Assembly (NCBI GenBank): GCA_902558395.1
Contig: CACEDS010000001.1
Location: 72,180 to 136,179 of the forward strand
Origin: an uncultured SAR86 cluster bacterium
GTDB lineage: Bacteria; Pseudomonadota; Gammaproteobacteria; Magnimaribacterales; D2472
Reading direction: 5' to 3'
DNA length: 64,000 nt
Both the position numbers and the translations under genes were made by a program. Below are positions 4,313 through 63,066 of this stretch, piece by piece (the first letter of the stretch is position 1; every line of letters starts with the position of its first letter). The notes under the pieces were generated by a model. The model was given only the letters and a program-made list of their open reading frames with translations. It did no database searches and was not told the origin of the DNA.

Positions 4313-4354
4313 CTATAGCACAAGAATTTAAAAACTTATATCATTAGATTTAAC

Positions 4355-4438
4355 TGCAAAGGGGTGGCCTAGCCTGAGATCTCTTAAAAAGAAACCCTTT
4401 GAACCTGATCCATACAATAATGGCGGAGGAATTGCATG
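4355..4438 (+). promoter_or_regulatory. TPP (THI-box) riboswitch, translational type
   Basis: Conserved core read directly: GGGGTG(4361) ... CTGAGA(4374-4379) ... ACCCTTTGAACCTGATC(4394-4410) CCAT-acaata-ATGG GCGGAGGAA. P1 is tgcaa 4355-4359 paired with ttgca 4432-4436. The SD GGAGGA (4425-4430) and the A of the ATG (4436) lie inside the aptamer. Confidence 0.85.
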
Positions 4439-6529
4439 AACACCATTAAAACCTATTTTTTTCTTTTTTTCTTTTCAATTTTTTTAGTTTCAGCTGATGT
4501 TGAAGAGGTTATTGTTCAAGGTGATTGGAGAGATACAAAATTAATTGAAGAGGACTCAAGTGTATTAGTGCTAACCTCGAAAGAAATTAATTCTGCTCCA
4601 ATAAAACATTTTGAGAATTTATCTTACCTAATACCAAACTTAAACTTTGCAGCCAGCGACTCAAGAGCAAGGCATTTTCAAATAAGGGGAATCGGCGAAA
4701 GATCTGGATATGAAAGGACTCCAAATTCAGCCGTTGGTTTTTTAATTGATGATATTGATTATTCTGGCCAGGGAGGAATTGCAACAACTTTTGATGTTGA
4801 TCAAATTGAAGTTCATAGAGGACCACAAGGCTCAAGAATCGGATCAAATGCTATGGCAGGACTTATTTACATAAAAACTAAAGAACCAACAGAAGTATTT
4901 GAAGGAGTTAGTGAAATTACAACAGGTACCTATGGAACTATAAACAGTGGTGTAGCCTTCGGAGGACCATCACAAATTGATGATTTAACATACAGAATTG
5001 CTTTAAGGAAAGATTACTCAGATGGATTTAGAAAAAATTTATTTTCTGGTAAATCAGATACCTCAAAAAAAGATGAATCTACTTTTAGGCTTAAAGCAAA
5101 TTGGAAAGTTAATTCAAAATCAACTTTAAAGTTTTTATTAACTCAAATAAACCTCGATGATCCTGCTGATATTTGGACAATTGATGGCAGTTTAAATACT
5201 CTTTCTGACAGGCCTGGTATGGATTCTCAAAAAACCAATGCTTATGGCATTAGATTCTTCCATATTCTAGAAAATTTTGAATTTCAGAGCTTAACCAGCA
5301 TGACAGATACTGATGTTGTGCTTAGCTATGATGCGGATTGGGGTAATCCTTCAACTCATTCGCCATATATTTATGATTATTTCTCTGAAACTCTAAGATT
5401 TAGAGAAACTATTAGTCAAGAATTTAGACTTTTATCAAATAAAGCTGATTTTAATTCCAATAAAAGATACGAATGGGTTGTTGGAATGAATTTTTTTGAA
5501 TCAAATGAGAAAAATTTAAAAAAAGATGATGGTATTTATGGTGATCCATCAGACCCCTATAGTCCTTATGTGAATGAAAGCTCATCATCAAGTAAATTTG
5601 ATATTCGAAACCTTTCTATTTATGGAAGTTTAAATTACTTAATAAGCGAGTCAACAAAATTTAGCATGGGTCTTCGCTGGGAGAACTCAGAATCAAAATA
5701 TTCAGATTCTTTTGGCGAATCATTTAACCCTTCAGATAAAATTTCGGGTGGCAAGATATCCGTTAATAAAATTTTAGACAAAAATTCTAATATCTTTTTT
5801 AGTATTGCAAGAGGATATAACCAAGGTGGTTTTAATTTAAATCTTGGGCTTGATCCAAATTCAGAGAATAGCAATCTTTATTATGATCCTGAATTTTTAA
5901 CTAATTATGAAATCGGATTTAATTCAAAAATTGAAGAATTAAATCTGAATTTAGCTGCTGTAATTTTTCACTCAGATAGAAAAGATCAACAGGTTTTAAT
6001 ATCAACTCAAGTAGATCTAAATGATCCAAATACGTTTACATTTTTAACCCAAAATGCAGCAGAAGGAACTAACAAAGGAATAGAGTTAGAAATGGACTTT
6101 CAGTTGTCTGAAAACTTAGATATCTTTATTAATTTTGGGCTGCTCAAAACTGAGATTAAAAGTTGGAAATCTCGACCAGAAATTGAGGGTAGAGCGCAAG
6201 CTCATGCCCCTGAAAAAAGTTATGCCATTGGTTTCAACTGGTACCCTTCAGAACAGTCAAGTTTATCATTTGATACGGTGGGTAAAAGTAGCTTTTACTA
6301 TTCTGATTCACATGACAACAAATCAAAATCATATTTCTTATCAAACATAAACTATAGTTATTTTTATGGTCAATGGACTTACTCTATTTGGGGAAGAAAT
6401 ATTTTCGATGAGTACTATTCAACAAGAGGTTTTTACTTTGGAAATGAGGCTCCAAATTTTATTGATACACTTTATGAAAGACATGGTGACCCAAGGCACC
6501 TAGGTGTTACAGTAAGATATGATTTCTAA
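4436..6529 (+). CDS. TonB-dependent outer-membrane receptor (riboswitch-controlled; predicted thiamine or thiamine-precursor uptake)
   Basis: 697 aa with a signal peptide, a TonB-box-like EEVIVQG, a plug domain (IEVHRGPQGSRIGSNAMAGLIYIKTK) and a beta-barrel ending in the terminal aromatic ...VTVRYDF. Confidence 0.9.
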   Translation: MNTIKTYFFLFFFSIFLVSADVEEVIVQGDWRDTKLIEEDSSVLVLTSKEINSAPIKHFENLSYLIPNLNFAASDSRARHFQIRGIGERSGYERTPNSAVGFLIDDIDYSGQGGIATTFDVDQIEVHRGPQGSRIGSNAMAGLIYIKTKEPTEVFEGVSEITTGTYGTINSGVAFGGPSQIDDLTYRIALRKDYSDGFRKNLFSGKSDTSKKDESTFRLKANWKVNSKSTLKFLLTQINLDDPADIWTIDGSLNTLSDRPGMDSQKTNAYGIRFFHILENFEFQSLTSMTDTDVVLSYDADWGNPSTHSPYIYDYFSETLRFRETISQEFRLLSNKADFNSNKRYEWVVGMNFFESNEKNLKKDDGIYGDPSDPYSPYVNESSSSSKFDIRNLSIYGSLNYLISESTKFSMGLRWENSESKYSDSFGESFNPSDKISGGKISVNKILDKNSNIFFSIARGYNQGGFNLNLGLDPNSENSNLYYDPEFLTNYEIGFNSKIEELNLNLAAVIFHSDRKDQQVLISTQVDLNDPNTFTFLTQNAAEGTNKGIELEMDFQLSENLDIFINFGLLKTEIKSWKSRPEIEGRAQAHAPEKSYAIGFNWYPSEQSSLSFDTVGKSSFYYSDSHDNKSKSYFLSNINYSYFYGQWTYSIWGRNIFDEYYSTRGFYFGNEAPNFIDTLYERHGDPRHLGVTVRYDF

Positions 6530-7112
6530 TCTTGTTCATGCTGATTGGATAGAACCAGCGGCAGTTATTCTTGCAATAGCCTATTTATTATTAGCCGTAA
6601 AACAGAACATAAGTTGTTGGTTTGCGGCATTTTTTAGTTCATTATTATATTTCTTTGTAATGTATTCTGCAGGTCTATATATGGAGGCAGGATTACAAAT
6701 ATTCTATTGTGTTATGGCTGTTTATGGGTGGACACAATGGAGAACATCTTTACCAAACAATAAAAAATTTCTCGTAAAAACATGGAATAGAAACCAACAC
6801 ATTAAAGCAATTTCATTGATATTTCTTTTAGCGTTTGCATCTGGCTGGGCGCTTGAAAAATTTACAAATGCTGCCTTACCTTTTATAGACTCTCTTACAA
6901 CTTGGGGGGCAATTGTAACGACATATATGGTCGCAAAGAGGCTTTTAGAAAACTGGATTTATTGGTTTGTAATAGACACAATTTCTGTGTTTTTATTTTA
7001 TTCAAGAGGACTATTCTTAACTTCAATATTATTTTTTGTATACCTAATAATTATTTATTTTGGTTACAAATCTTGGACCGAAATGAAAGATGAAATTGAT
7101 GCAAAAAATTGA
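6519..7112 (+). CDS. pnuT: PnuC-family inner-membrane transporter (PnuT-like, predicted thiamine transporter)
   Basis: 197 aa, 7-TM, with PnuC-type motifs (AYLLLAVKQNISCW, YGWTQW, NWIYWFVID). It overlaps the receptor stop by 11 nt. The thiamine assignment comes only from the riboswitch context. Confidence 0.7.
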   Translation: MISNLVHADWIEPAAVILAIAYLLLAVKQNISCWFAAFFSSLLYFFVMYSAGLYMEAGLQIFYCVMAVYGWTQWRTSLPNNKKFLVKTWNRNQHIKAISLIFLLAFASGWALEKFTNAALPFIDSLTTWGAIVTTYMVAKRLLENWIYWFVIDTISVFLFYSRGLFLTSILFFVYLIIIYFGYKSWTEMKDEIDAKN

Positions 7113-7926
7113 TAAAAAAATTGCTTCAGTCGATCATAAAATTGAAATTATTTCACCTTTAAAAATTGATCTAATTTCTCAAATTTTTCTATGTAATTTT
7201 AATGATATTAAATCTGTAATAAGGGTTGATTTTGATTTGCCAAATTGGTTAAAAAAACAAAGAGCTTTGGAATTTCAGATACTTAATTTTTTAAAAACAA
7301 AAACACAAAATCAAAAAATTTTATATAACGATTTTGATAGAGGAATTCTAATAAGAGAATTTCATGAAGGTAAAGAAATTGTATATTCTGATTTTAGAAG
7401 AAAAGAGAATTTAATTTCTTTGGGTAAAGAAATTAAGAAAGTTCATGAAATAAAAATTGATAACGTCGCAATTAATAATTTTGAAAACCTCATTGAAAAT
7501 TATAGAGACATTCTTAAAAACAAAATTAAAAATAATTGGTATCTAAATCAAGGCTTCAAAATTTTTAATTCTCTTTCTTGTGAAAAAGAGCAAATAATTT
7601 TTTCTCATAATGATTTAAATCGTGAAAATATTTTGTTTAATAAAAAATATTTTTTTATAGATTGGGAGTATGCGTCTGCCAACAGTCCTTATTTTGATTT
7701 AGCTACAATCATTTCCTCTTATGATTTTAATGATGAGGAAATTGGTTATTTATTTGATGGTTACGATAAAAATTTCCCTCTTGACCAAGAAAAATTAAAA
7801 AATTGGGTCAAATTTACTTTTTTTTTAGACTACATATGGAGAAAATGTCTTATTGAAACCACAATGCATGATGAAAAGACACTAAACATAAAGGATTTAG
7901 AAAGAAAGCTAGATATTTTTAAGTAA
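7090..7926 (+). CDS. thiK: APH/choline-kinase-fold small-molecule kinase, ThiK-like (predicted thiamine kinase)
   Basis: 278 aa with the Brenner catalytic motif HNDLNRENILF and the downstream IDWEYA. Size and fold class match thiamine kinase. It overlaps the PnuC-family gene by 23 nt. Confidence 0.6.
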   Translation: MKLMQKIDKKIASVDHKIEIISPLKIDLISQIFLCNFNDIKSVIRVDFDLPNWLKKQRALEFQILNFLKTKTQNQKILYNDFDRGILIREFHEGKEIVYSDFRRKENLISLGKEIKKVHEIKIDNVAINNFENLIENYRDILKNKIKNNWYLNQGFKIFNSLSCEKEQIIFSHNDLNRENILFNKKYFFIDWEYASANSPYFDLATIISSYDFNDEEIGYLFDGYDKNFPLDQEKLKNWVKFTFFLDYIWRKCLIETTMHDEKTLNIKDLERKLDIFK

Positions 7927-8020: not shown

Positions 8021-8221
8021 ATGGATAAATTTAAGGAAATTCTTACAGATCATATCTCCAATTGGAACATGGTATGGTTTGGCCTAATTTTTTGGGGAAG
8101 TGTCTTTAATGCTATAGCTATTCGCTATCAATTTACTGATATTACTATTTATTGTTACTTCACAGGTTTATGTCTTGGCCTTATAGCAAAGATAAGAGGA
8201 ACATGGTTATGGAAAATCTAG
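8021..8221 (+). CDS. small 2-TM membrane protein, hypothetical
   Basis: 66-aa ORF with two hydrophobic helices just upstream of the desaturase-family gene. It has no family signature and could be spurious. Confidence 0.3.
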   Translation: MDKFKEILTDHISNWNMVWFGLIFWGSVFNAIAIRYQFTDITIYCYFTGLCLGLIAKIRGTWLWKI

Positions 8222-9099
8222 AAAAGATTTCAGAAGAATTTTCCTTTGATAAAGAAAAAGAGATCGCTAGAAGTTTCTCAAAAAGGTTTCAATGGGAGAT
8301 GGCCTTAATTGGTGTTGGTCAAGCAACGGTTTGGCTATCTTTGTGGCCATTAGTAATTAATGGACATATTTCTTTATCACTTGGTTCTGTAATTGCAACT
8401 ATTTGTGCCTGTTTTGCATACCTGCCTTCGCATGAAGCGCAGCATGGCAATTATTCAAGGGGAAATCCAAAAAGACGTTGGATCGATTTATTTGTAAGCC
8501 ATTACACATTAATAACACTCATGTTTCCTCATGATGTTATGAGAGCTACTCACATGAAACATCATGCTTATACAAATAATCCAGAAAAAGATCCAGATCA
8601 TGATACTGCATCTGCTAAATCTCTTTGGGAGGTTATTGTTGCCACTCAGGCAGGGATATCAAAATATCAAGCAATAGCTAAAATCTATGAAAATGATAAA
8701 GCATTTATGAAATCCTTTAATAAAGGTTTGAATATAGGAATGTTATATAGAGTAATTCTTTTAACTTTAGTTGTATTTTTTCCTTTAGAGACACTTCTAT
8801 TATGGTGGTTGCCAAGTAAGTTTGGAGTCATTTATCTTTCAGTCTTTTTCAGCTGGTATCCTCATTATCAAGCTGAAACAGGAAGATATAAAGATACAAG
8901 ATTTTGGAGCCACTGGATGCCTAGATATTTAAATCATTCAATGCAACTCCATTTTATACATCATCTGCATCCTGGTATTGGCCATTATGATGAACCTAAG
9001 GCTATAGAAGCACTAAAACCTTTTTTAATTGCTAGAGGTGTTCCTGGTGCAGAAGACATTCCAGATAGAGTTAAACATAATCCACTTATCAAAGTTTAA
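8203..9099 (+). CDS. membrane di-iron fatty-acid-desaturase-superfamily protein (CrtW/CrtR-like His boxes)
   Basis: Three His boxes: HEAQHG, HMKHHAYTNNPEKDPD and HFIHHLHP. Two N-terminal TM helices. The track ORF starts at 8152, but Met at 8203 or 8209 (MVMENLEK) avoids overlap with the preceding small ORF, so the start is uncertain. Confidence 0.75.
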   Translation: MVMENLEKISEEFSFDKEKEIARSFSKRFQWEMALIGVGQATVWLSLWPLVINGHISLSLGSVIATICACFAYLPSHEAQHGNYSRGNPKRRWIDLFVSHYTLITLMFPHDVMRATHMKHHAYTNNPEKDPDHDTASAKSLWEVIVATQAGISKYQAIAKIYENDKAFMKSFNKGLNIGMLYRVILLTLVVFFPLETLLLWWLPSKFGVIYLSVFFSWYPHYQAETGRYKDTRFWSHWMPRYLNHSMQLHFIHHLHPGIGHYDEPKAIEALKPFLIARGVPGAEDIPDRVKHNPLIKV

Positions 9100-9177
9100 C
9101 TTTCTAATATTTTTCTTGTTTTTTTAAATAATTTCTGTTCTAGTAAAAGTTGAATTATTTACATAAAGGGGGAGTTT

Positions 9178-10374
9178 ATGAAAGTATTATGCGTTTTATA
9201 CGATGATCCAAAAACTGGCATGCCCGAAAAGTATGCACGAGATGATTTACCAAAAATTGATAAATATCCAGATGGTATGACATTGCCGTCTCCCAAGGGC
9301 ATTGATTTTACTCCAGGAGAATTACTTGGATGTGTTTCAGGAGAGTTGGGGCTTAGAAAATTTCTAGAAGATGCTGGACATACATTAGTAGTTACATCTG
9401 ACAAAGATGGTGAAGGGTGTGAAGCAGATAGAGAATTAGTTGATGCTGATATAGTCATATCTCAACCATTCTTTCCTTATTATTTAACTCGTGAAAAAAT
9501 GGAAACCGCTCCAAATCTTAAGATGGCAATAACTGCTGGAATCGGTTCAGACCACGTAGATCTTCAAGGAGCCATGGATCACAACATAGATGTTGTGGAG
9601 GTTACATACTGTAATTCAAGATCTGTAGCAGAGCATATTGTAATGATGATTCTTTCAATGGTTAGGGATTACCATAATCAACACAGGATAGTTAATGAAG
9701 GTGGTTGGAATATAGCTGACGCTGTTCAAAGATCATATGATGTTGAAGGAATGCATGTCGGAACTGTAGCTGCAGGAAGAATAGGTATCGACATGTTAAG
9801 AAAGATGAAACCTTTTGATGTCCATCTGCACTATTTCGACATTCATAAATTACCTGATGAGGTCGAGGCAGAACTAAATCTTACTTATCATGATTCTGTT
9901 GAATCTTTAGTTGCTGTTTGTGATGTGGTTAATATTAGTTGTCCACTGCATCCAAAGACAGAGCACTTATTTAATGATGAGATGATCGCAAAAATGAAAC
10001 GCGGTGCTTATATTGTTAACACTGCTAGAGGAAAGATTTGTGACAAAGATGCAATTGCAAGAGCTTTAGAATCTGGCCAGTTAAGCGGTTATGCTGGAGA
10101 TGTTTGGTTCCCGCAACCAGCTCCTAATGATCATGTTTGGAGAACAATGCCTAATCATGGGATGACTCCTCATACTTCTGGAACATCATTATCCGCTCAA
10201 GCTAGGTATGCTGCTGGTGTAAGAGAAATACTTGAGTGTTTCTTTTCTGGAGAGCCAATTAGAGAGCCATATTTAATTGTTAAAGACGGTGATCTTGCAG
10301 GAATGGGAGCTCATTCTTATACAAAAGGTACAGCAACCGACGGATCGGAAGAAGCTGCAAATTATAAAAAATAA
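9178..10374 (+). CDS. fdh: NAD+-dependent formate dehydrogenase (metal-independent, D-2-hydroxyacid dehydrogenase family)
   Basis: 398 aa, near-colinear with Pseudomonas sp. 101 FDH as I recall it: MKVLCVLYDDP...YARDDLPKID...IDFTPGELLG.VSGELGLRKFLE..GHTLVVTSDKDG...TAGIGSDHVDL...GTVAAGRIG...PLHPKTEH...YAGDVWFPQPAP. Strong SD (AAGGGGGAG) upstream. Confidence 0.95.
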   Translation: MKVLCVLYDDPKTGMPEKYARDDLPKIDKYPDGMTLPSPKGIDFTPGELLGCVSGELGLRKFLEDAGHTLVVTSDKDGEGCEADRELVDADIVISQPFFPYYLTREKMETAPNLKMAITAGIGSDHVDLQGAMDHNIDVVEVTYCNSRSVAEHIVMMILSMVRDYHNQHRIVNEGGWNIADAVQRSYDVEGMHVGTVAAGRIGIDMLRKMKPFDVHLHYFDIHKLPDEVEAELNLTYHDSVESLVAVCDVVNISCPLHPKTEHLFNDEMIAKMKRGAYIVNTARGKICDKDAIARALESGQLSGYAGDVWFPQPAPNDHVWRTMPNHGMTPHTSGTSLSAQARYAAGVREILECFFSGEPIREPYLIVKDGDLAGMGAHSYTKGTATDGSEEAANYKK

Positions 10375-10377
10375 TTT

Positions 10378-11346
10378 TTAGAAATTTTGCAGTCTTGATT
10401 TAATTATCTCATCAGCCTGGGACATAATATTATTTATTAAGTCCTGGACTGTTGGGATGTCATTAACAAGCCCAGCTACCATTCCACAAGACCAAGCGCC
10501 TGCTTCCATGGTTCCTTCATGCATAATTTTTGGGTAAACACCAGCAACTTCATCAAGAATATCTTCAAACTTGAGATCATCGCCTAATCTTTTTTCTTTT
10601 TCCATCAGTCTTTCCACTGCTTCATTATTAAGAACTCTTTCTGTATTTGTTAATGATCTCATAATCAATCGAGTATCAAGTTCTGTTGCATTAACAATAG
10701 CTTCTTTAACATTTTGATGAACTGGAGCATCTTGTGTCGCTATAAACCTTGTTCCCATATTCATTCCTTCTGCTCCAAGTGCCATAGCAGCAACCAAACT
10801 TCTACCGTCAGCCATTCCGCCTGATGCCACGAACGGGATTTCTAATTCTTCGGCGGCTCTAGGCAATAAAATAAAATTGGGAATATCATCTTCACCTGGG
10901 TGACCACCACATTCAAAACCATCAACTGATACAGCATCACAACCAATTGATTGAGCTTTTATAGAGTGTCTAACAGAAGTACATTTATGAATAACTTTTA
11001 TTCCAGCTTCCTTAAGAGCAGGTAAATATTCTGCAGGGTTTCTTCCAGCAGTTTCAACTACTGGCACTCCTGCATCGATTATTTCTTTGATCAATCCAGG
11101 ATAATCCGGGGGTGTTAGAGAGGGTAGAAAAGTTAAATTTACTGCAAAAGGCTTATCTGTCATTTCTTTACATCTTGCAATCTCATTTGCTAATTTTTCA
11201 GGTGTACCTTGAGTTAGACCAGTAATAGTTCCCAGCCCACCTGCATTAGAAACAGCTGCAGCAAGTTCAGCAAATCCTACATGATGCATGCCACCTTGAA
11301 TAATTGGATGCTCAATACCAAATAGTTCTGTTATTTTAGTTTTCAT
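10378..11346 (-). CDS. nitronate monooxygenase / FabK-like FMN-dependent oxidoreductase (NMO family)
   Basis: MKTKITELFGIEHPIIQGGMHHVGF... is the canonical NMO N-terminus. I place the start at 11346, preceded by AAGGAGAG, not at the track's 11469, which would run 134 nt into the upstream SDR gene. Confidence 0.85.
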   Translation of the reverse strand: MKTKITELFGIEHPIIQGGMHHVGFAELAAAVSNAGGLGTITGLTQGTPEKLANEIARCKEMTDKPFAVNLTFLPSLTPPDYPGLIKEIIDAGVPVVETAGRNPAEYLPALKEAGIKVIHKCTSVRHSIKAQSIGCDAVSVDGFECGGHPGEDDIPNFILLPRAAEELEIPFVASGGMADGRSLVAAMALGAEGMNMGTRFIATQDAPVHQNVKEAIVNATELDTRLIMRSLTNTERVLNNEAVERLMEKEKRLGDDLKFEDILDEVAGVYPKIMHEGTMEAGAWSCGMVAGLVNDIPTVQDLINNIMSQADEIIKSRLQNF

Positions 11347-12152: not shown

Positions 12153-13190
12153 TTATCCTAATAATATTTCACACCCAGTTCCATCAAGAAAAGTTTTAAC
12201 TCTTGACTGATCATTTTCATTAAGCGCAGCAAACTCCTCTTTAATCCACTTTAAACATTTAGCTTGATAAGGAAAGGCTCTTTGTTTCCATAAAGACCCA
12301 TCAATTTCGATCTCCCATGTTTCCTCACCCTTCATAATTGCATTTGCATTTGCAAGCAAAGCTGGAACATACATCCTGCCAAACTCTTTCATGATTTCTT
12401 TTAAAGAATCAGGGCTTTCTTCAAGAGGAATCCAGTTGCTATTGTCAACATCATGACCAGACAAGTCAGCCATTACATCTTGCCAAGAAACAAGTCTTAA
12501 TGCATTATCGTAGGCAATTTTTCTTGATGTAGGTTCAAACCCAATGAGCTGAGTTAATTGCCCATAGATAGCAAAATCAGCAGAAGAAGGCTTTTCACCA
12601 AAAAGAAATTTACTAATAGATAAGTGATCATCCATCAATTTTAGGAATCTTTTATAACTAGCATCGATTAAACCAGCTGTTGTATCATTTGAGCCTACAA
12701 CCCATAACCTTCCAGTCTGTCTATCATGAACATATTTTTTTGCATCCTTTAGTATTTCATCAGGCAAATTCACAGCAAGATCACTCAATGGAAGGATGGT
12801 TGATGCATTATCAGCATCTTCATCAAAATACCATCTGTAATGGAACATATATTTAGTAACCCATTCATCTCCAAAATCTTCTAATAAATAATTTATGAAA
12901 GATAAAGCAGGGTCCTCAGGTAATAATTTTCTATCTGGATACTCGTTTTCAAATCTTCTAATGATTGGGGTGGTATCAGTAGTTGCTTTTAATTTACCAC
13001 TTTCATCTTCTAAAAGCAGAGTAGGAAGTAAAACAGGTTTTGGTGGCTCTATTCCTTCTAGCCTGCTTAATCTTCCTGGAACATCTCCCATGAAAACTTC
13101 ATAGGAAATATGGCGATACCTCAAAATAGAAATCATTTTCTGTGTGTAAGGTGAGGCAGGGACCCCAAAAACTTTTATTTTTTCTTTCAC
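12153..13190 (-). CDS. atypical long glutathione S-transferase-like protein
   Basis: 345 aa. N-terminal thioredoxin-like GST domain (VFGVPASPYTQKMISILRYRHISYEV), a central GST-C-like helix region (SSADFAIYGQLTQL) and an extra C-terminal domain of about 100 aa. Confidence 0.6.
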   Translation of the reverse strand: MKEKIKVFGVPASPYTQKMISILRYRHISYEVFMGDVPGRLSRLEGIEPPKPVLLPTLLLEDESGKLKATTDTTPIIRRFENEYPDRKLLPEDPALSFINYLLEDFGDEWVTKYMFHYRWYFDEDADNASTILPLSDLAVNLPDEILKDAKKYVHDRQTGRLWVVGSNDTTAGLIDASYKRFLKLMDDHLSISKFLFGEKPSSADFAIYGQLTQLIGFEPTSRKIAYDNALRLVSWQDVMADLSGHDVDNSNWIPLEESPDSLKEIMKEFGRMYVPALLANANAIMKGEETWEIEIDGSLWKQRAFPYQAKCLKWIKEEFAALNENDQSRVKTFLDGTGCEILLG

Positions 13191-16365: not shown

Positions 16366-16980
16366 TTATTCTCCTAAGGTTATAGCTTTTTGAAATGCTG
16401 GTCGTGCTTCAATTCGGGCTACATAATTTTTAATGTGCTCCATTTCGTCAGGAACACATCCTAATCTATTAGCCATAAAACATGAGTGGCCAAGCATTAG
16501 ATCAGCAGCGGAAAAATTACCAACTAAGTAATCTTTATCTGCAAGGTTTTCATTAACTGGCCCAAGAGATTTAGTTATTAGGTTTTGTGCTTGCTTTAAA
16601 ACATTCTCATTTCTTCTATCCGGCGGTAAAAGAATTGTTTGAACTACGACCTGATTCATTGGAGGCATGACCATGCCCTCACAGTAATGAAACCATTGCA
16701 GATAATATGGAAACTCTTCAGAATCTGAATTCGGTTTAAGTCCACCATCTTTATGACGCTCAAGGATATATTGAATGATGGCTCCAGATTCAAATATAGA
16801 AATATCACCATCCTCAAGAACTGGCACTCTGCCCAGTGCATGTCTAGATCTATGTTCCGGTGATTTCAAACCTTCTTTTGTAAAAGGCATGATATTTACA
16901 TCATAATCTAGCCCTAATTCTTCTAGTAGCCAAACCACTCTTCCAGCCCTAGTACCTGGTGTAAAATGAACTTTTAACAT
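16366..16980 (-). CDS. glutathione S-transferase (copy A of tandem pair)
   Basis: 204 aa with a GST N-domain ([23 protein letters not shown]) and a C-domain. Confidence 0.85.
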   Translation of the reverse strand: MLKVHFTPGTRAGRVVWLLEELGLDYDVNIMPFTKEGLKSPEHRSRHALGRVPVLEDGDISIFESGAIIQYILERHKDGGLKPNSDSEEFPYYLQWFHYCEGMVMPPMNQVVVQTILLPPDRRNENVLKQAQNLITKSLGPVNENLADKDYLVGNFSAADLMLGHSCFMANRLGCVPDEMEHIKNYVARIEARPAFQKAITLGE

Positions 16981-17032
16981 AGTATTCTCCTTGTTTCTAT
17001 TAAATCACTCTTCTATAAAATTAATTGATACA

Positions 17033-17713
17033 TTAGATAGTAACTGTCCTTTTCTTCATTGAACGAAATGACCACCACCGATAAATTTTATGGAAAAATG
17101 TTTCACCCATTGATATAGCTTTTTGAAATGCAGGTCTTGCTTCAATGCGAGCTAAATAATTTTTAATGTTCTCCATTTCATCAGGAACACATCCTAATCT
17201 GTTAGCCATAAAACATGAGTGACCAAGCATTAGATCAGCAGCAGAAAAATCACCAATCAAATAATCTTTGCCCTCAAGATTCTTGTTTACAGGCCCTAAT
17301 GATTTAGTTAATAGATTTTTAGCTTGTTTTAAGACATTTTCATCTCTTCTATTGGATGATAATAGAATAGCTTGAACTACAATTTGATTCATAGGAGGCA
17401 TAACCATTCCCTCACAGTAATGAAACCATTGCAGATAATATGGAAACTCTTTAGAGCTTACATCAGGCTTTAAACCTCCGTCTTTATGTCGTTCAAGAAT
17501 ATATTGAATGATGGCACCAGATTCAAATATTGATATATCACCATCTTCTAGAACTGGAACCCTTCCAAGAGCATGACGCGTCCTATGTTCTGGTGACTTA
17601 AGACCTTTTTTGGTAAAAGACATGATATTAATATCATAATCTAGACCTAGCTCTTCAAGAAGCCAAACTACTCTTCCTGCTCGAGTACCTGCTGTAAAGT
17701 GAATTTTTAACAT
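17033..17713 (-). CDS. glutathione S-transferase (copy B of tandem pair, 22-aa C-terminal extension)
   Basis: 226 aa, about 86 percent identical by eye to copy A over 204 aa. It reads on past the position of copy A's stop (..MGETFFHKIYRWWSFRSMKKRTVTI). Confidence 0.85.
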   Translation of the reverse strand: MLKIHFTAGTRAGRVVWLLEELGLDYDINIMSFTKKGLKSPEHRTRHALGRVPVLEDGDISIFESGAIIQYILERHKDGGLKPDVSSKEFPYYLQWFHYCEGMVMPPMNQIVVQAILLSSNRRDENVLKQAKNLLTKSLGPVNKNLEGKDYLIGDFSAADLMLGHSCFMANRLGCVPDEMENIKNYLARIEARPAFQKAISMGETFFHKIYRWWSFRSMKKRTVTI

Positions 17714-17724
17714 AAGATTGCTTC

Positions 17725-18408
17725 TTATTTTTTTACCATTTTTTGTGCGTTTTTTATAAATTCCTTTTCGTCTTCTTCATTTTTTAAAATACTTTCTCTA
17801 TCTACTGGAACTTTAGTTCCCTTAATCATCCCTGGCTGCTCATACATTCTATTTTTCCAATCTTCTAGATGGACTAGTCCATCAATTGATACACCTGACC
17901 AATTATGGGTTCTAACCCAGCACCAATTAGCAATGTCTGCAATCGAATATTCTCCTGCTAGCCATTCATTGCTAGCTAGATGAGTATCTAAAACTTCAAA
18001 AAGACGCCTTGATTCATTTTGATATCTATCTATAGCTGGCTGAATTTTTTCAGGAAAGTACCTAAAAAAAACATTTGCTTGGCCCATCATGGGACCGATA
18101 CCACCCATTTGGAACATAAGCCATTCAGTTACTTTTGCTCTTCCTTTATCATCATTTGGGATAAGCTTGCCTGCCTTTTCTGCAAGATAAAGCATTATTG
18201 CACCAGACTCGAAGATCGAAAGGTCATCATTATCAGTATCAACAATAGCTGGAATTCTGCCATTAGGACTAATTTTTAAAAATTCAGGTTTTTTTTGCTC
18301 ACCTTCAGCAAGGTTTACTGAATGCACTTCGTAGGGCATTTCTAATGCCTCCAATAAGCATGAGACTTTATGTCCGTTAGGTGTTGAGGCTGTATATAAA
18401 TGAATCAT
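17725..18408 (-). CDS. Nu-class glutathione S-transferase (YfcG-like disulfide-bond reductase type)
   Basis: [57 protein letters not shown] parallels the E. coli YfcG N-terminus (TPNGHK, ISPN.KIPAIVD). Confidence 0.85.
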
Positions 18409-20584: not shown

Positions 20585-20644
20585 GATAATTTTATGTTAT
20601 CTTTTAATATCTAATTATTAATGTCTATAAGGGGGACTTTTATA

Positions 20645-23053
20645 ATGAAAAATTTATTTAATCTTATGTTATTTTTTGGTGTACTTCTAACACCCTTTAG
20701 TATAATCGCACAAGATTCAGAAGGAATTGAAGAAGTTATAGTATCTGCTACAAAAAAGGATGCTAGCGCTCAAGATGTGCCAATTTCACTTGATGTTCTT
20801 ACATCAGATCAAATTGATAGTTTAAACATTGATACTATGAGAGATGTTGCAGCAAGAATTCCTTCTTTAAGCACAAATTATAATACTGATCCGTTTCAGT
20901 CCTCAATGAGAATTAGAGGTGTTGGTTCAAGTCAATCAGATACTTCATTGGAGGCTGGCGTTGCTATTATTGTTGATGGTGTATATCTAAATAGAACAGG
21001 CTTGGGTTTAAATGATCTTACAGATATTGCTAGAGTAGAGGTTCTTCAAGGTCCTCAGGGTACCTTGTATGGTAAAAATGCTAATGCTGGTGTAGTTAAC
21101 ATTGTTACAAAATCTCCAGTTATTGGTGATGATGAGGGATTTATAGAAATAGAATCTGGTGATTACAATCAAGAAAGAATAACTGGGGGTATTTCAAAAA
21201 CCCTAAGTGATACTTCAGCAATGAGATTTTCATTTAATAAGAATGAAGCTGATGGTTGGATGAAGAATGTGGCCGATAATTCAACAGCAAATAATGAAGA
21301 CGATTTGACTATGTCTCTTAAGTTGTACTTTAACCCAAGTGATACTCGCTCCGTTGTTTTCACTCATACAGACACATCTAAAAACGGTAACTGTTGTGCA
21401 GCTGATTCTCAGCCTAATAACCCTGTATTGTTAGCTGGAGCATCGGTAACTGGAAAAACGCTTCAGAATAATGATACAACTGACTTTATTTTTTCAGCCA
21501 CCGATAGACCTCAGTTTGATTTAGATTCATCATTAACAAGTGTAAAAATAGATGATGATTTAGAAAAAGGAACGCTTACAACAATTATTTCAAGAAATAA
21601 ATATGACTTTTACAAAGGAGTAGATGCTGACTTTAGCTCAATTGATATGGCTAATTCTGACAGAAACATTGGAGGAAGCTCACTATCAACAGAAATTAGA
21701 TTTGCTTCAGATATGATTGGAAGCTGGGAATATTTAGTAGGCTTGTTCCATTACACCAGTGACCTCTATGAAAGAGGCGATAAAACTGTTTCCATAGGTG
21801 CTGACTGGGATCCAACTATGGCTGCTGTAATGGCAGGACTAAATGCAAGTATTGCTCAATTAACACAAGCTGTTGCGGCTGGATTAGCTCCTGCATCACA
21901 ACTTCAAGCATTGGTAGCCCAGGCTCAGGCTACTGGAGGACTAGTTGCTTTTGTTAATAGTGGCGATCGTATTGAAAACGATATGAAATGGGATGATTCT
22001 TTAATGGCTATTTTTGGATCTGCAACTAATCATATTAGTGATACCTTAAGATTAACCATTGGTCTTAGAGTTAGTGATGAGACTAAAGAAGCTGATCTGT
22101 ATGCTGGAACTATATTAGAGGGCACAATGACTCTAAGTCCAGGCATAGCAGCGGCACTTGGAAACCCAGCATTGGCTGGCGCTACAATTCCTAGACAAAA
22201 TGTTGCAGCCGCATGGCCTTTAAACGCATTTATGAATCCAGTAGATGACGAGTTCAAAAGAGAAAAGAATTCAACAACATACTCTATTAGTCTTCAAAAA
22301 GATCTTGCTGATGATGTTATGGTTTATACCTCATATGCAACAGGTTTTAAATCAGGTGGATTTAATTCTACCGGCGGTGATGATAGTTATCCAAGAGAAT
22401 ATAAAGATGAGGAATCAAGCAATTTCGAAGTAGGTATTAAATCAAGAATTAATGAAGGTAAAACTCAATTTAATGCAACAGTATTTAATATGGAAACTGA
22501 GAACCTTCAAGGTGTTTTACAAGTTCCAAGCGGAACTGGTACAGCTGTTTATAATTCTACAATACCTGCTAAAAGACTTGGTCTTGATCTTAATGTTATT
22601 CATAAGTTTTCACAAAGCTTGGTTATGAATCTTGGTTACATGAAATTAGATGATGACGATGCAGATATATCAACTAATGCTGCTGTTAGATTAACTCCCA
22701 AGATGGCATACAATGTTGGTCTTTCTCATTTCATGTCTCTTGGTAATGGACAAGTTCATACACGTATTGATTATTCTTATGATGATGAGATGGAAGTTAC
22801 TTCTAATTATTCAACATCACCTGCATTAGCAACTTTGCCTGCTTCATTCAAAGAGAAAAGAGATAGAGAAAATCTTAATGCAAAAATTGCTTGGTCTAAT
22901 AATCAGTGGGAGGTCGCTTATTGGGTTAAAAATGGTACTGATCAGCTATTTGAGAGATTAGTAACATCTCCAAGTCCCGTAGCTGGAGGTAACTTTGCTG
23001 TATTTATGATGAAACCAAAAACTCAAGGTTTTAGCGTAAAATATAATTTCTAA
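20645..23053 (+). CDS. TonB-dependent outer-membrane receptor, substrate unknown
   Basis: Start moved to the ATG at 20645 (MKNLFNLMLFFGVLLTPFSIIAQD signal peptide, preceded by AAGGGGGA). TonB box EEVIVSATKK, plug (VEVLQGPQGTLYGKNANAGVVNIVTK), terminal ...FSVKYNF. Confidence 0.9.
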   Translation: MKNLFNLMLFFGVLLTPFSIIAQDSEGIEEVIVSATKKDASAQDVPISLDVLTSDQIDSLNIDTMRDVAARIPSLSTNYNTDPFQSSMRIRGVGSSQSDTSLEAGVAIIVDGVYLNRTGLGLNDLTDIARVEVLQGPQGTLYGKNANAGVVNIVTKSPVIGDDEGFIEIESGDYNQERITGGISKTLSDTSAMRFSFNKNEADGWMKNVADNSTANNEDDLTMSLKLYFNPSDTRSVVFTHTDTSKNGNCCAADSQPNNPVLLAGASVTGKTLQNNDTTDFIFSATDRPQFDLDSSLTSVKIDDDLEKGTLTTIISRNKYDFYKGVDADFSSIDMANSDRNIGGSSLSTEIRFASDMIGSWEYLVGLFHYTSDLYERGDKTVSIGADWDPTMAAVMAGLNASIAQLTQAVAAGLAPASQLQALVAQAQATGGLVAFVNSGDRIENDMKWDDSLMAIFGSATNHISDTLRLTIGLRVSDETKEADLYAGTILEGTMTLSPGIAAALGNPALAGATIPRQNVAAAWPLNAFMNPVDDEFKREKNSTTYSISLQKDLADDVMVYTSYATGFKSGGFNSTGGDDSYPREYKDEESSNFEVGIKSRINEGKTQFNATVFNMETENLQGVLQVPSGTGTAVYNSTIPAKRLGLDLNVIHKFSQSLVMNLGYMKLDDDDADISTNAAVRLTPKMAYNVGLSHFMSLGNGQVHTRIDYSYDDEMEVTSNYSTSPALATLPASFKEKRDRENLNAKIAWSNNQWEVAYWVKNGTDQLFERLVTSPSPVAGGNFAVFMMKPKTQGFSVKYNF

Positions 23054-24496: not shown

Positions 24497-25213
24497 ATGA
24501 ATAAAAATATTGCAGTCATCGGTGCATCTGGAGCAATTGGAAATGCATTTGTAGAACATTACTCTAATGATCAATCAGTTAATACTGTTTATGCATTTTC
24601 AAGAAACAAACAAAGTTATGAAAATAAAAAAATTCAAAGTTACGAATTAGAAATTGAAAATCAAAATAGCATTCAAGATGCAGCAGAAAAAATTAAAGAA
24701 AACCGTCTAAATCATATTATTGTTGCTACAGGGATTTTGCACTCTGAAAGTTTTGGCCCTGAAAAAAGTATTAAAGATATTAATCATGACAGCATGACTA
24801 AAGTTATGAGCGTGAACACGATTGGCCCTTCATTAATTGGGAGATACTTCATACCATTATTAACAAAAGATACTAAGTCTGTTTTGGCCTTTTTAAGCGC
24901 AAGGGTAGGAAGTATTTCAGACAATAAATTGGGTGGCTGGTACTCATATAGAGCAAGCAAAACAGCACTTAATCAGATAATAAAAAACTTTAGTATTGAA
25001 TTAAAAAGAACAAACCCAAATGCAATTGTCTTAGGACTTCAACCTGGAACAGTAGATAGCAATCTTAGCGAGCCATTTAAGAAAAATGTAGCAAAAGGTA
25101 AGTTATTCACCCCAGAACAAAGCAGGGAGCTGCTTTCAAATGTAATTGAAAATGCAACTACAAATGATTCAGGAAACTTATTAGCATATGATGGAGAAAC
25201 TATTTCTCCATAA
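24497..25213 (+). CDS. short-chain dehydrogenase/reductase (CsgA/C-factor-like subgroup)
   Basis: 238 aa with GASGAIGNAF and YRASKTA (YxxxK). Confidence 0.8.
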   Translation: MNKNIAVIGASGAIGNAFVEHYSNDQSVNTVYAFSRNKQSYENKKIQSYELEIENQNSIQDAAEKIKENRLNHIIVATGILHSESFGPEKSIKDINHDSMTKVMSVNTIGPSLIGRYFIPLLTKDTKSVLAFLSARVGSISDNKLGGWYSYRASKTALNQIIKNFSIELKRTNPNAIVLGLQPGTVDSNLSEPFKKNVAKGKLFTPEQSRELLSNVIENATTNDSGNLLAYDGETISP

Positions 25214-25216
25214 AAT

Positions 25217-25660
25217 CTAATTGGAAATTATGCACAGATACCTTCTTGCTGTTACCTCATTATTTTTATCATACTCTGCAACAAAAGCATCTCGTGCGTT
25301 AACATCTGATTCGGTTCTTGTATTTTGGTTCCAATCCCACCATCTTTCCTGTTCAGGCAAAGATTTGTGAACGACATGAGTGCTTAACCTAAATATCTCT
25401 TCACTTGGTCCACCATCTTCTTCACTTGGCAAATATTGTATAGACGGTACAACCTCTACATCAAAACCTCTATCTTTATAGTAAGCCTCATGCATCTTTG
25501 TTGCATTTAGCCACCCCTCGATAGTTCCGCCTTCAATAAGTTTAGCGACATAGTAATTAGCTGGACTACCTTTGCAATCCGACGGTTTTGGAAAACCTTT
25601 GTGATCATCTGAGTAAATATTAAAAGAAATAATAGCTAAAGCTGTTATAAAGTACTTCAT
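25217..25660 (-). CDS. secreted protein of unknown function
   Basis: Start placed at 25660 (MKYFITALAIISFNIYSDD signal peptide, preceded by GGAGG) rather than the track's 25729. I recognise no family motif. One Cys lies near each end of the mature protein. Confidence 0.5.
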   Translation of the reverse strand: MKYFITALAIISFNIYSDDHKGFPKPSDCKGSPANYYVAKLIEGGTIEGWLNATKMHEAYYKDRGFDVEVVPSIQYLPSEEDGGPSEEIFRLSTHVVHKSLPEQERWWDWNQNTRTESDVNARDAFVAEYDKNNEVTARRYLCIISN

Positions 25661-25732: not shown

Positions 25733-25762
25733 TAAAAAAAAACCCGGTATAAACCGGGTTTT
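25733..25762 (-). terminator. intrinsic terminator of the proteorhodopsin gene
   Basis: On the minus strand: AACCCGG-tttata-CCGGGTT followed by a T9 run (plus-strand A-run 25732-25742). It sits 25 nt after the stop codon. Confidence 0.8.
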
Positions 25763-25786: not shown

Positions 25787-26533
25787 TTATGCACTAGATT
25801 CTTTGACTGCAACATTCCAAATGATTAAACCAAATAGAATCTTGTTAACAAAGTCAGCAAGGTTATAAATTAAGTTTAGATTCATAGCTGATGATCCATC
25901 ACCTACTAGGTAGCCTGAAGCATATCCAAGTGGGTAAATTGCCCAACCAACTATAATAATCCACATCATTGTGTTGTATGCAGATTGAACCGCAGGACTT
26001 GCTGTATTGCATGCAGACTTACCTTCACCAGCCCATAGCTCATAGATCATGTAAATCCAAGCTAACATTCCAACAATGAAAGCAGGCATAGCTGCCATTA
26101 TTCCAGCTTCTCCCATATATCCGAATACAAGCATTACAAGAGAACCAATTAATAGTTTCTTAAATAAAGAACCTGCAACATTGGTTGCAGCAGCAAGTAT
26201 TAAGTAGAATTCACATATTAATAAAGGCACTGTTAGTAACCAGTCAATATATCTGAATACAGTTGGTGTTTCTCCAGTCTCTACCCAGACTCCTCTCATG
26301 TACAAGTAATGCCAAAAAGCAATACCAGTAACAAGACCGGATACTGTTAATGAAGTCTTCCATTTAGCTGAAACTCTATCTCTTTCAATAAAAAAGAATA
26401 CAGTAGAAGCTAACAGCGCAGCAGTAACCAACCAAAAAGATACACCAGTGTAATCACTAGCATCTAGGTCGCCACCACTAGCAGCAAAAGAAGGAAGCGC
26501 AATAACACTACCCAAGATTAATAAATATTTCAT
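25787..26533 (-). CDS. proteorhodopsin, green-absorbing light-driven proton pump
   Basis: 248 aa, 7 TM, with H75, D97 (RYIDWLL), L105, E108 (ICEF), D227 and K231 (DFVNKILFG). Colinear with, and about 90 percent identical to, the SAR86 EBAC31A08 proteorhodopsin as I recall it. Confidence 0.97.
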   Translation of the reverse strand: MKYLLILGSVIALPSFAASGGDLDASDYTGVSFWLVTAALLASTVFFFIERDRVSAKWKTSLTVSGLVTGIAFWHYLYMRGVWVETGETPTVFRYIDWLLTVPLLICEFYLILAAATNVAGSLFKKLLIGSLVMLVFGYMGEAGIMAAMPAFIVGMLAWIYMIYELWAGEGKSACNTASPAVQSAYNTMMWIIIVGWAIYPLGYASGYLVGDGSSAMNLNLIYNLADFVNKILFGLIIWNVAVKESSA

Positions 26534-26589
26534 ATTAAACTCCTATTTTTTAGAGTAAAAAATTACTCCCCCGTTAGTATGAACTTAAG

Positions 26590-26618
26590 ATAATAGCTAA
26601 AAATGGTATATGTATCAA
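26590..26618 (-). promoter_or_regulatory. candidate sigma70 promoter of proteorhodopsin
   Basis: Minus strand TTGATA (26618-26613), 17 nt spacer, TATTAT (26595-26590). This implies a leader of about 50 nt ending in AGGAG before the ATG at 26533. Confidence 0.4.
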
Positions 26619-28010: not shown

Positions 28011-29351
28011 TTAATTTAGAAGATTATTAATTGAAACTAAATCTCCAGGAGTAATAGTTCCTGCAGATAAATCTAATCTAAGATTAGCAAGAATATAATC
28101 ATATTTAGCATTAGCAAGATTTTTTTCAGCGCTATAAAGGTTTTTTTCTGCTTGTAAAAGATCTACAACATTTCTTGTTCCGACCTTGTAACCGACTTGT
28201 GTAGCTTCAAGTGCACTAGTTGCTGAGATTACAGCTTGTTTTTGAGCAGTTACATTGGCAACTAGGGTAACAACGTTAGAGTATCCAGATCGAACATCTT
28301 GTATGATTTTTCTTTGAGTAAATAAAGTGTTCTCATTAGTTCTCTCATATTGTGCGTAAGCTTGTTTTCTTCTTGAGCTGACAGCTCCACTTTGAAAAAT
28401 TGGCATACTAAACTGGATAGCAAAATTTCTTCTGCCTGTTACTTCAGGAACGGGAACACCCTGACCGTTAAAGTTTAGGCCTTCATAGTTAAATTGGTTT
28501 GTTTCAGACTCAGATTTAGATCCAACAATATCTATTTTAGGTAAATGATTAGAAGCAGCATTTCTAGCATTACTTTTGGCTGCATCTTTTTTTAAATATG
28601 CAGCTTTAAGTTGATAATTATTTTCTAATGCTATATCTACCCATTCTTCTTTTGAGCTTGGTGCAGGACTTTCAATTAATAAACCTTCACCCAATTCGTC
28701 AAGACTAAATATTTCTCTACCTATCAATGCGTTTAATGCTTCTCTTGCAGAAAATAAACTTCCTTCCGCATTAATTCTGGATGCCTTACTTAAGTCATAT
28801 GCTAGTTGAGCTTCTTGCACACCAGTTATTGCAGAAAGACCAACCTCATACCTTTGTTGGGCTTGATCAAGCTGTTTTTTTATTGCCTTTTCTTCTGACA
28901 TGGCTGCATTTAGATTATCTATAGCTCTTAATACCCCAAAATAAAGTTCTGCAGTTCGAACTAAAAGATTTTGTTGTTCATATGCAAACTCAGCTTCAGC
29001 AGCATTTGTTAATGATTTAGATTGTTTAAACTGAAACCAAGAATCCAACCTGAACAAAGGCTGTGTTAATCTTGCTGAGCTCGAGAATGAGTTATATTCC
29101 TGTTGAAGCTGTTTATCTTGATAATACTCATTCCAATTAGTTGAACCACTCAAAGTTAGGCTTGGTAAGAGAGAAGCTCTACCTTGAACAACTAATTCTT
29201 TGTCTGCAAGGTATGAATATTCTGCGGCTTTAAAGGTTGGATCATTTTTTAAAGCCTCATTATAAATATCTAATAAGTTTTCTGCTAAAAGGCTAGAAGT
29301 TGAAAAAATTAATATGAATAATGATTTTGAAATTTTGTTCATTTTGTTCAT
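28011..29351 (-). CDS. tolC: TolC-family outer-membrane efflux channel
   Basis: 446 aa with a signal peptide and two tandem OEP repeats (LLDIYNEALKNDPTFKAA..., ...ALENNYQLKAA...). An alternative start exists at 29342. Confidence 0.9.
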   Translation of the reverse strand: MNKMNKISKSLFILIFSTSSLLAENLLDIYNEALKNDPTFKAAEYSYLADKELVVQGRASLLPSLTLSGSTNWNEYYQDKQLQQEYNSFSSSARLTQPLFRLDSWFQFKQSKSLTNAAEAEFAYEQQNLLVRTAELYFGVLRAIDNLNAAMSEEKAIKKQLDQAQQRYEVGLSAITGVQEAQLAYDLSKASRINAEGSLFSAREALNALIGREIFSLDELGEGLLIESPAPSSKEEWVDIALENNYQLKAAYLKKDAAKSNARNAASNHLPKIDIVGSKSESETNQFNYEGLNFNGQGVPVPEVTGRRNFAIQFSMPIFQSGAVSSRRKQAYAQYERTNENTLFTQRKIIQDVRSGYSNVVTLVANVTAQKQAVISATSALEATQVGYKVGTRNVVDLLQAEKNLYSAEKNLANAKYDYILANLRLDLSAGTITPGDLVSINNLLN

Positions 29352-61968: not shown

Positions 61969-62383
61969 GATTTTTATTACAAGTTTTTTATTTTTTATAT
62001 CCTTCATGCAGGCAGAAGAATGTGTTCCTGAGCCTAATGCAAGTGTCTATTTTATAAGTCCACAAGATAACTATGTATCGAAAAGCTCTGAAGTAAAGAT
62101 AGTTTTTGGAATTAAGAATTTTGATATATTGCCAGCAGGTACTATTGGTTGCAATTCTGGACATCATCATCTTGTAATTAATGCTGAATTACCAAACTTA
62201 TCAAGGCCCATACCAAGTACAGAAAATTATATTCATTTTGGAAAGGGTCAGACAGAAACAACTATTAATTTAAAACCTGGCAAACATACTCTTCAACTTT
62301 TAGTTGGAGACTATGCACACATCCCTCATAAAAATCCTATTTTTTCAGAAAAGATAAATATTGAAGTAATTAGTTCTGAATAA
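61961..62383 (+). CDS. DUF4399-like secreted protein
   Basis: Start placed at 61961 (MNKIFITSFLFFISFMQA signal peptide). Has a GHHHL motif (CNSGHHHLVIN). The family call is from memory. Confidence 0.5.
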   Translation: MNKIFITSFLFFISFMQAEECVPEPNASVYFISPQDNYVSKSSEVKIVFGIKNFDILPAGTIGCNSGHHHLVINAELPNLSRPIPSTENYIHFGKGQTETTINLKPGKHTLQLLVGDYAHIPHKNPIFSEKINIEVISSE

Positions 62384-63042: not shown

Positions 63043-63066
63043 AAATTTTTTAGTTAATAAAGTCAA

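Follow-up and report, generated by a model that had tools for sequence, protein, structure and literature searches.

The stretch of DNA analyzed here, which we call the window, comprises 64,000 nucleotides from an uncultured SAR86 cluster bacterium (NCBI GenBank assembly GCA_902558395.1, contig CACEDS010000001.1, positions 72,180 to 136,179 of the forward strand). On its minus strand, at 25787..26533, lies an open reading frame (ORF) that runs from ATG to TAA and specifies 248 amino acids plus the stop. This gene very probably encodes an intact, ordinary green-absorbing proteorhodopsin of a SAR86 gammaproteobacterium, that is, a seven-helix opsin of the inner membrane that carries the DTE motif. 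A sequence-only reading of the same DNA had proposed a complete seven-transmembrane proteorhodopsin with H75, D97, L105, E108, D227 and K231, and all of these residues and their codon coordinates were correct when recomputed. All of the codons lie on the minus strand. H75 (CAT, 26309..26311) is the proteorhodopsin-specific histidine that partners D97, and D97 itself (GAC, 26243..26245) is the primary proton acceptor and counterion. T101 (ACA, 26231..26233) is the middle residue of the DTE motif, L105 (TTA, 26219..26221) is the spectral-tuning residue in its green form, and E108 (GAA, 26210..26212) is the cytoplasmic proton donor. The second counterion is D227 (GAC, 25853..25855), and the retinal Schiff-base lysine is K231 (AAG, 25841..25843). 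The recomputation likewise located R94, in addition to T101.

A hydropathy scan of the protein revealed an N-terminal signal segment followed by seven hydrophobic segments. The signal peptide corresponds to codons 1-17, MKYLLILGSVIALPSFA (26483..26533, minus strand), lies in a hydrophobic segment that spans residues 1-21, and aligns with the signal sequence of GPR, the green proteorhodopsin encoded by the SAR86 bacterial artificial chromosome (BAC) clone EBAC31A08 (PDB 2L6X, 7B03, 8CQC/8CQD, 8CNK). The GPR signal sequence, MGKLLLILGSVIALPTFA, which is the part aligned with codons 1-17 of the window gene, has been described previously (PMC11322631). The two proteins thus share the same signal-peptide architecture, as well as the same host lineage, and the signal peptide of the window protein is predicted to be cleaved.

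The gene is flanked by recognizable expression signals, all read on the minus strand. Direct reading of the sequence places an AGGAG ribosome-binding site (26540..26544) 6 nucleotides 5' of the ATG, and the 184-bp gap that separates the gene from the divergent coaD contains a promoter-like site, TTGATA-17-TATTAT, with 10 of 12 matches (26590..26618). Beginning 25 nucleotides past the stop codon is an intrinsic terminator hairpin (25739..25762) with a 10-bp stem that includes five G-C pairs and is followed by a run of T residues. The hairpin has a predicted folding energy of -18.3 kcal/mol, a stability that no shuffled sequence out of 200 reached (z = -3.3). Given the hairpin past the stop, the proteorhodopsin transcript appears to be monocistronic, with its own intergenic promoter region and its own terminator.

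Membership of the protein in the rhodopsin family is clear from several searches. Residues 29-244 match the Pfam family PF01036 (Bac_rhodopsin) with an E-value of 1.2e-43 and 149.6 bits, compared with a cutoff of 24.6. When PDB sequences were searched, the best class of matches consisted of green proteorhodopsins (8CQC, 7B03, 8CNK and 2L6X; E-values from 5e-148 to 3e-140), and the second consisted of blue proteorhodopsins (E-values of about 1e-124, the best being 7e-125). More distant classes were xanthorhodopsin (8e-20), a Na+ pump (8e-14), a Cl- pump (7e-11) and sensory rhodopsin II (8e-10). The matches to Pfam and to green proteorhodopsins in the PDB imply that the ORF at 25787-26533 is not a chance ORF.

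Alignment with the GPR chain (8cqc/7b03/2l6x) is gapless, and the proteins are identical at 224 of 246 positions (91.1%). In this alignment, the Schiff-base lysine of the window protein, K231 in helix G, pairs with K231 of GPR. Also identical are W34, H75, Y76, R94, D97, W98, T101, L105, E108, M134, G138, E142, G155, W159, A178, W197, Y200, P201, Y204, D227 and N230, so that all of the residues checked in the retinal pocket and between protomers are the same in both proteins. The positions chosen for this check are ones known to be important in GPR. Light-driven proton pumping is said to have been shown first by Beja et al. in 2000, with this same GPR of SAR86 BAC clone EBAC31A08.

These data suggest that the protein functions as an outward, light-driven, green-tuned proton pump. 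This interpretation, also advanced in the sequence-only reading, is the best supported one, because every determinant listed above is present and because the gapless identity to the characterized GPR is 91%. The features that distinguish the proteorhodopsin clade of pumps are all found in the protein: the DTE motif, the H75-D97 pair, and the counterion complex formed with R94 and D227. Position 105 is occupied by Leu and not Gln, which is the mark of the green subtype. We infer, by analogy with GPR and other published SAR86 systems, that a pigment forms, as well as its absorption maximum, the direction and ion of transport, and the source of the retinal.

We also considered whether the protein might pump another ion (Na+ or Cl-) or be tuned to blue light. 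Rhodopsins that pump Na+ or Cl- are detectable as homologues (E-values from 1e-13 to 1e-10), and in close SAR86 relatives the corresponding locus holds blue alleles with Q105. However, the residues at positions 97, 101 and 108 are D, T and E, and not the NDQ of Na+ pumps or the NTQ of Cl- pumps, residue 105 is Leu (TTA) and not Gln, and the best PDB matches are green proteorhodopsin chains. An alternative ion or a blue-tuned protein is therefore exceedingly unlikely. Comparison with the blue proteorhodopsin BPR of the HOT75 type (PDB 4KLY, 4KNF, 4JQ6) shows the same distinction. BPR belongs to the same family and shares the DTE motif with the window protein, but has Gln105 and absorbs near 490 nm (PMC9325082), whereas the window protein has Leu105.

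Membership of the type-1 rhodopsin superfamily is also compatible with a light sensor that acts via a transducer, as opposed to a pump that conserves energy, and sensory rhodopsin II is among the distant PDB matches (E-value of 8e-10). Yet the window protein has the carboxylate donor E108 as well as the full DTE motif, and is 91% identical to a demonstrated pump. Moreover, a Pfam scan of the whole window revealed no gene for a transducer, MCP, HAMP or histidine-kinase protein, and the proteorhodopsin gene is apparently monocistronic. The probability that this protein is a sensor is, in our estimation, close to nil.

Several points weigh against the assignment as an ordinary green-tuned pump, or at least against some of its details. 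First, 22 residues of the window protein differ from their GPR counterparts, among them W149M, C156M, Y191W, F195V, V202L and F205A, where the GPR residue is given first. In light of these differences, the window allele may differ slightly from GPR in its absorption maximum, the rate of its photocycle or its oligomeric state. The substitutions, which also include L77M and M210V, are conservative, and the C-terminus of the window protein is shorter by one residue. To our knowledge, none of the changes affects a residue that defines pump function. Second, the assignment of a promoter is weak, because promoter-like sites occur in the region at the frequency expected by chance in such AT-rich DNA (seven were seen, and 7.5 were expected). 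Third, no source of retinal is encoded in the window, and without retinal the protein cannot pump.

The mechanism that we propose for the window protein is carried over from GPR by homology. After removal of the signal peptide, the opsin would take up all-trans retinal at K231 as a protonated Schiff base. Absorption of a green photon would then isomerize the retinal to the 13-cis form. On the basis of Leu at position 105, the absorption maximum would be expected near 520-525 nm, as in GPR. The Schiff-base proton would pass to D97, a residue that would be coupled to H75 and would form a counterion complex together with R94 and D227. Subsequently, the Schiff base would be reprotonated from the cytoplasmic side via E108, and a proton would be released to the periplasm. 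The net outward transport of protons would add to the proton-motive force, which would be available for ATP synthase, secondary transporters, TonB-dependent uptake and RND (resistance-nodulation-division) efflux. Use of the proton-motive force for ATP synthase, TonB-dependent uptake and RND efflux in SAR86 was already argued by Dupont et al. (PMC3358033).

The protein and its host lineage are well represented in existing data. At least 127 public contigs, some of them from SAR86 single-cell genomes, already carry the exact 248-amino-acid sequence, and the cluster of proteins at 90% identity around it has 671 members. The same protein is present in NCBI assemblies GCA_902619075.1, on an 856-kb contig, and GCA_902557705.1, with neighboring genes as in the window; the window and GCA_902619075.1 are 99.86% identical in nucleotides over 20.7 kb. 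When relatives were sought in one genome for each species, 80 loci were obtained. The protein match was 100% in two of these, which derive from the single-amplified genomes (SAGs) AG-390-F09 and AG-390-J18, both labeled "uncultured SAR86 cluster bacterium", and the next 50 or so were from SAR86 or from unnamed marine Gammaproteobacteria. The G+C content of the window (33.1%) agrees with the 30-33% published for SAR86 genomes (PMC3358033).

The published loci of SAR86A-D (Dupont et al. 2012, PMC3358033) resemble the window in having a green-tuned proteorhodopsin, a flanking gene for a short-chain dehydrogenase/reductase (SDR) and no retinal pathway, as well as many TonB-dependent receptors and a G+C content near 33%. 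The sublineage of the window differs in that its proteorhodopsin and SDR genes are separated by an additional ORF, which encodes an orphan protein of 147 amino acids; otherwise, nothing substantial sets it apart. The window thus contains the green proteorhodopsin that is typical of SAR86, with the genomic surroundings that are usual for it. The identical protein has been deposited many times, the finding is already known, and the remark in the sequence-only reading that the gene family is established knowledge was apt. Among marine cases of rhodopsin phototrophy, the SAR86 proteorhodopsin is the founding one, and another intact copy confirms the known picture and adds nothing new to it. What is gained is an annotation with a firm call: a green-tuned proton pump of SAR86 origin that has no linked chromophore genes.

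Sequence variation among relatives indicates how the gene has been maintained. Pairwise dN/dS values of the window gene against 53 SAR86-type relatives range from 0.05 to 0.24, and H75, R94, D97, T101, E108, D227 and K231 are unchanged in all 65 SAR86-type loci. The low dN/dS values and the invariant pump residues clearly indicate strong purifying selection, and thus that the gene is kept for a function that requires the Schiff base as well as the proton relay.

Position 105 varies among the same 65 loci, with L in 42 and Q in 23; this L/Q color switch has been described (PMC9325082 and PMC10807816). In close SAR86 genomes, BPR-type Q105 alleles take the place of the green allele between coaD and the SDR gene. 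One such genome is SAR86 SAG AG-447-B02 (locus L027, 10001-10744), whose nucleotide sequence on either flank of the proteorhodopsin gene is 91-97% identical to that of the window. Exactly within the gene, the identity falls to 66-80%, and the L027 allele is of the blue type, with Q105 in the context LQMVEF. These two nearly identical backbones look as though recombination had exchanged a green and a blue allele, in either direction and with the precision of a single gene.

The window encodes nothing that makes retinal. Our Pfam scan covered all 62 non-nested ORFs of at least 90 amino acids plus two open frames at the ends of the window, and in these 64 kb it detected no polyprenyl synthase, phytoene synthase, phytoene desaturase, lycopene cyclase, Blh or RPE65-type oxygenase. 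In a further search, hidden Markov models (HMMs) of crtI, crtB, crtY and blh were built from Burkholderiales proteorhodopsin loci and were compared with stop-to-stop pieces of at least 50 amino acids in all six frames of the window and of 90 loci. The profiles matched 17-20 non-SAR86 loci, which served as positive controls, and matched none of the 65 SAR86-type loci within 10 kb of the proteorhodopsin gene. Against the six-frame window, the best E-values were 1.7-7, which is noise. On these noise-level matches, hidden or broken crt or blh genes in the window were rejected. Together, the searches bear out the earlier statement that crtE, crtB, crtI, crtY and blh are missing from the 64 kb, and the linked set of proteorhodopsin, crtEIBY and blh that would make a self-sufficient photosystem is not found in the window.

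One candidate for a role in carotenoid metabolism was rejected. A membrane protein of the fatty-acid desaturase family (8152-9099, plus strand) was considered as a carotenoid hydroxylase, but it scores only 62.9 bits against the NCBIfam CrtR model, for which the cutoff is 475. In all likelihood, the protein is a lipid desaturase or hydroxylase of an ordinary kind.

A different arrangement is found in freshwater Burkholderiales, whose proteorhodopsins are 60-67% identical to that of the window and also have L105. In these clusters, crtI, crtB, crtY and blh lie immediately downstream of the proteorhodopsin gene, whereas these genes are absent from the window and from all SAR86 loci. The metagenome-assembled genome (MAG) of Variovorax (locus L072) provides a positive control, because the ORFs that adjoin its 64%-identical proteorhodopsin gene were recognized as crtI, crtB, crtY and blh, in that order. 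This Variovorax locus has two tandem rhodopsin genes (8987-9733 and 9776-10744) directly upstream of crtI-crtB-crtY-blh.

The missing crt and blh genes are a published, lineage-wide trait of SAR86 and not a peculiarity of the window. Dupont et al. (2012) reported that four SAR86 genomes, as well as SAR86 BACs and fosmids, all lack the retinal pathway, and proposed that retinal is scavenged (PMC3358033). From this published genomics of other SAR86 genomes, the cell probably does not make retinal at all, and scavenging is the most likely source, because the pathway is missing from those genomes. The sequence-only reading had left the chromophore as either encoded elsewhere or scavenged; that alternative was correctly framed, and the published evidence favors its second branch. 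More recently, Hirschi et al. (2024) showed that retinal-free GPR is stable and modeled the uptake of retinal (PMC11322631). In the stable GPR apoprotein, a fatty acid occupies the retinal pocket as a placeholder (PMC11322631).

These observations raise another explanation, namely, that SAR86 cannot make retinal, that the opsin exists in the cell mostly as apoprotein, and that the gene yields little or no light energy, being a relic or serving some function independent of retinal. The lack of crt and blh genes in the window and near the proteorhodopsin gene in the 65 SAR86-type loci, their absence from published SAR86 genomes (PMC3358033) and the stability of the GPR apoprotein with its fatty-acid placeholder (PMC11322631) are all compatible with this explanation. 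The pattern of sequence conservation is not: purifying selection is strong (dN/dS of 0.05-0.24), and the Schiff-base lysine and the proton-relay residues are invariant in the 65 loci. Furthermore, position 105 toggles cleanly between the known color states L and Q, in one case apparently by a gene-precise allele replacement. Such clean switching implies that light absorption is under selection, as the pattern would otherwise be senseless. We consider a relic or retinal-independent protein highly improbable, and favor a functional green-tuned proton pump that obtains its retinal from outside the cell. How a retinal-dependent protein stays under strong selection in a lineage that lacks the retinal pathway is a live question that was posed in 2012, and the window makes this question no easier to test than do the SAR86 genomes already available and the recently obtained SAR86 isolate.

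The SDR gene (24497..25213, plus strand; 238 amino acids; Pfam adh_short) is convergent with the proteorhodopsin gene. The sequence-only reading had described the surroundings as consisting entirely of housekeeping or catabolic genes, which holds for most of them but overlooks this SDR. Dupont et al. (2012) had already noted an SDR beside SAR86 proteorhodopsins and suggested that it may convert retinoids (PMC3358033). The protein scores 235 bits against NCBIfam PRK09009, which is under the cutoff of 330, and its best PDB match is a carbonyl reductase (E-value of 7e-15). A specific assignment as a retinol dehydrogenase is unsupported, as the matches are those of a generic SDR and include no retinol-dehydrogenase signature. 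We also clustered the neighbors of 88 proteorhodopsin loci. The SDR adjoins the proteorhodopsin gene in approximately 31 of these, the same loci in which coaD and mutM are retained on the opposite flank, and at least four other SAR86 proteorhodopsin contexts do not have this SDR. A special linkage between the SDR and proteorhodopsin genes was rejected on these grounds. The housekeeping genes coaD and mutM are at least as tightly linked to the proteorhodopsin gene, and because the SDR occurs only in coaD-linked contexts, its position there indicates nothing more than ordinary synteny.

The orphan gene that separates the proteorhodopsin gene from the SDR gene (25217..25660, minus strand) specifies a protein of 147 amino acids with a signal peptide and a pair of invariant cysteines (C29/C143). 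The protein matches no Pfam or NCBIfam model. Its family comprises 27 clusters, all at least 53% identical, and is restricted to close SAR86 relatives. On every contig that is long enough to show neighbors, the orphan gene follows closely downstream of the proteorhodopsin gene; it is situated between that gene and the SDR gene in all cases, including the most divergent member, but one. In the exceptional locus, L047, the orphan gene is 846 bp downstream of the proteorhodopsin gene, and no SDR was detected. AlphaFold2 models of the orphan reached a pLDDT of 52.6 from the single sequence and a mean of 62.7 with the family alignment, and a Foldseek search of the PDB with the model returned nothing below an E-value of 0.8.

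Small ORFs of the SnoaL/NTF2-like type are found directly downstream of the proteorhodopsin gene in two other SAR86 contexts. One SnoaL_2/NTF2-like type (C20, in L033-L045, L070, L076 and L088) is convergent and matches with an E-value of 2.4e-5, just under the Pfam cutoff. The other (C44, in L049, L051 and L059) has a signal peptide and matches with an E-value of 1e-7. When the orphan was compared by hhalign with these SnoaL-like neighbors of proteorhodopsin genes, the probability was below 10%, and no significant similarity was found.

One hypothesis regarding these neighbors is that the orphan and the SDR form a module for chromophore salvage, in which the orphan, as a secreted, disulfide-bearing protein, would capture an exogenous retinoid or apocarotenoid within the periplasm and the SDR would oxidize retinol to retinal. 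If true, this module would explain how proteorhodopsin is loaded in SAR86 without crt or blh genes. Hints in its favor are the position of the orphan beside the proteorhodopsin gene wherever neighbors are visible, the SnoaL/NTF2-like ORFs beside the gene in other SAR86 contexts and the retinoid role suggested for the SDR by Dupont et al. 2012 (PMC3358033). Counting against it are the generic nature of the SDR, whose linkage is no tighter than that of coaD and mutM, the terminator between the proteorhodopsin gene and the orphan, and the lack of detectable fold relatives of the orphan or of significant similarity to the SnoaL-like neighbors. On balance, we regard such a module as very unlikely.

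The remainder of the window includes components of systems that could consume proton-motive force. Two TonB-dependent receptors, reported in the sequence-only reading, were recovered by the Pfam scan at 4436-6529 and 20621-23053. The same reading listed an RND pump, and this claim stands in part. A TolC-family channel (28011-29351; TIGR01844, 320 bits), an RND periplasmic adaptor that begins near 63061 and is cut by the end of the window (TIGR01730, 154 bits) and a divergent TetR regulator (62370-62984) are present. However, the Pfam scan detected no ACR_tran permease in the window. In the related locus L089, a gene for a 1,020-amino-acid ACR_tran protein follows the adaptor, and by this gene order the permease is expected to lie beyond base 64000 in the source of the window. 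The efflux system is thus best recorded as incomplete within the window. Other genes in the window include coaD, mutM, parE/parC, genes for murein enzymes, leuS, accBC, heme genes and rho, as well as genes for an acyl-CoA dehydrogenase, a sulfatase, several glutathione S-transferases (GSTs) and hydrolases.

Two further regions of the window merit brief description. Directly before the TonB-dependent receptor at 4436-6529 is a thiamine pyrophosphate (TPP) riboswitch (4350-4448, plus strand; Rfam RF00059, 66 bits). The receptor gene is followed on the plus strand by a gene for a PnuC/NMN-transporter-family protein (6519-7112) and then by one for a choline/APH-type kinase (7090-7926). From its gene content, the region 4350-7926 (plus strand) looks like an operon for the uptake and salvage of thiamine vitamers. 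Thiamine auxotrophy of SAR86 has been published (PMC3358033), and the riboswitch operon agrees with it.

The second region, on the minus strand, contains three tandem GST paralogues and, nearby, a fourth GST-like gene (16366-18408 and 12153-13190). Two of the three tandem paralogues are approximately 83% identical in nucleotides. Their surroundings include genes for a sulfatase, a DUF2855 protein, an alpha/beta hydrolase and a LysR-regulated TonB receptor, and to judge by this assortment of genes the GST/sulfatase/hydrolase region looks like a catabolic island.

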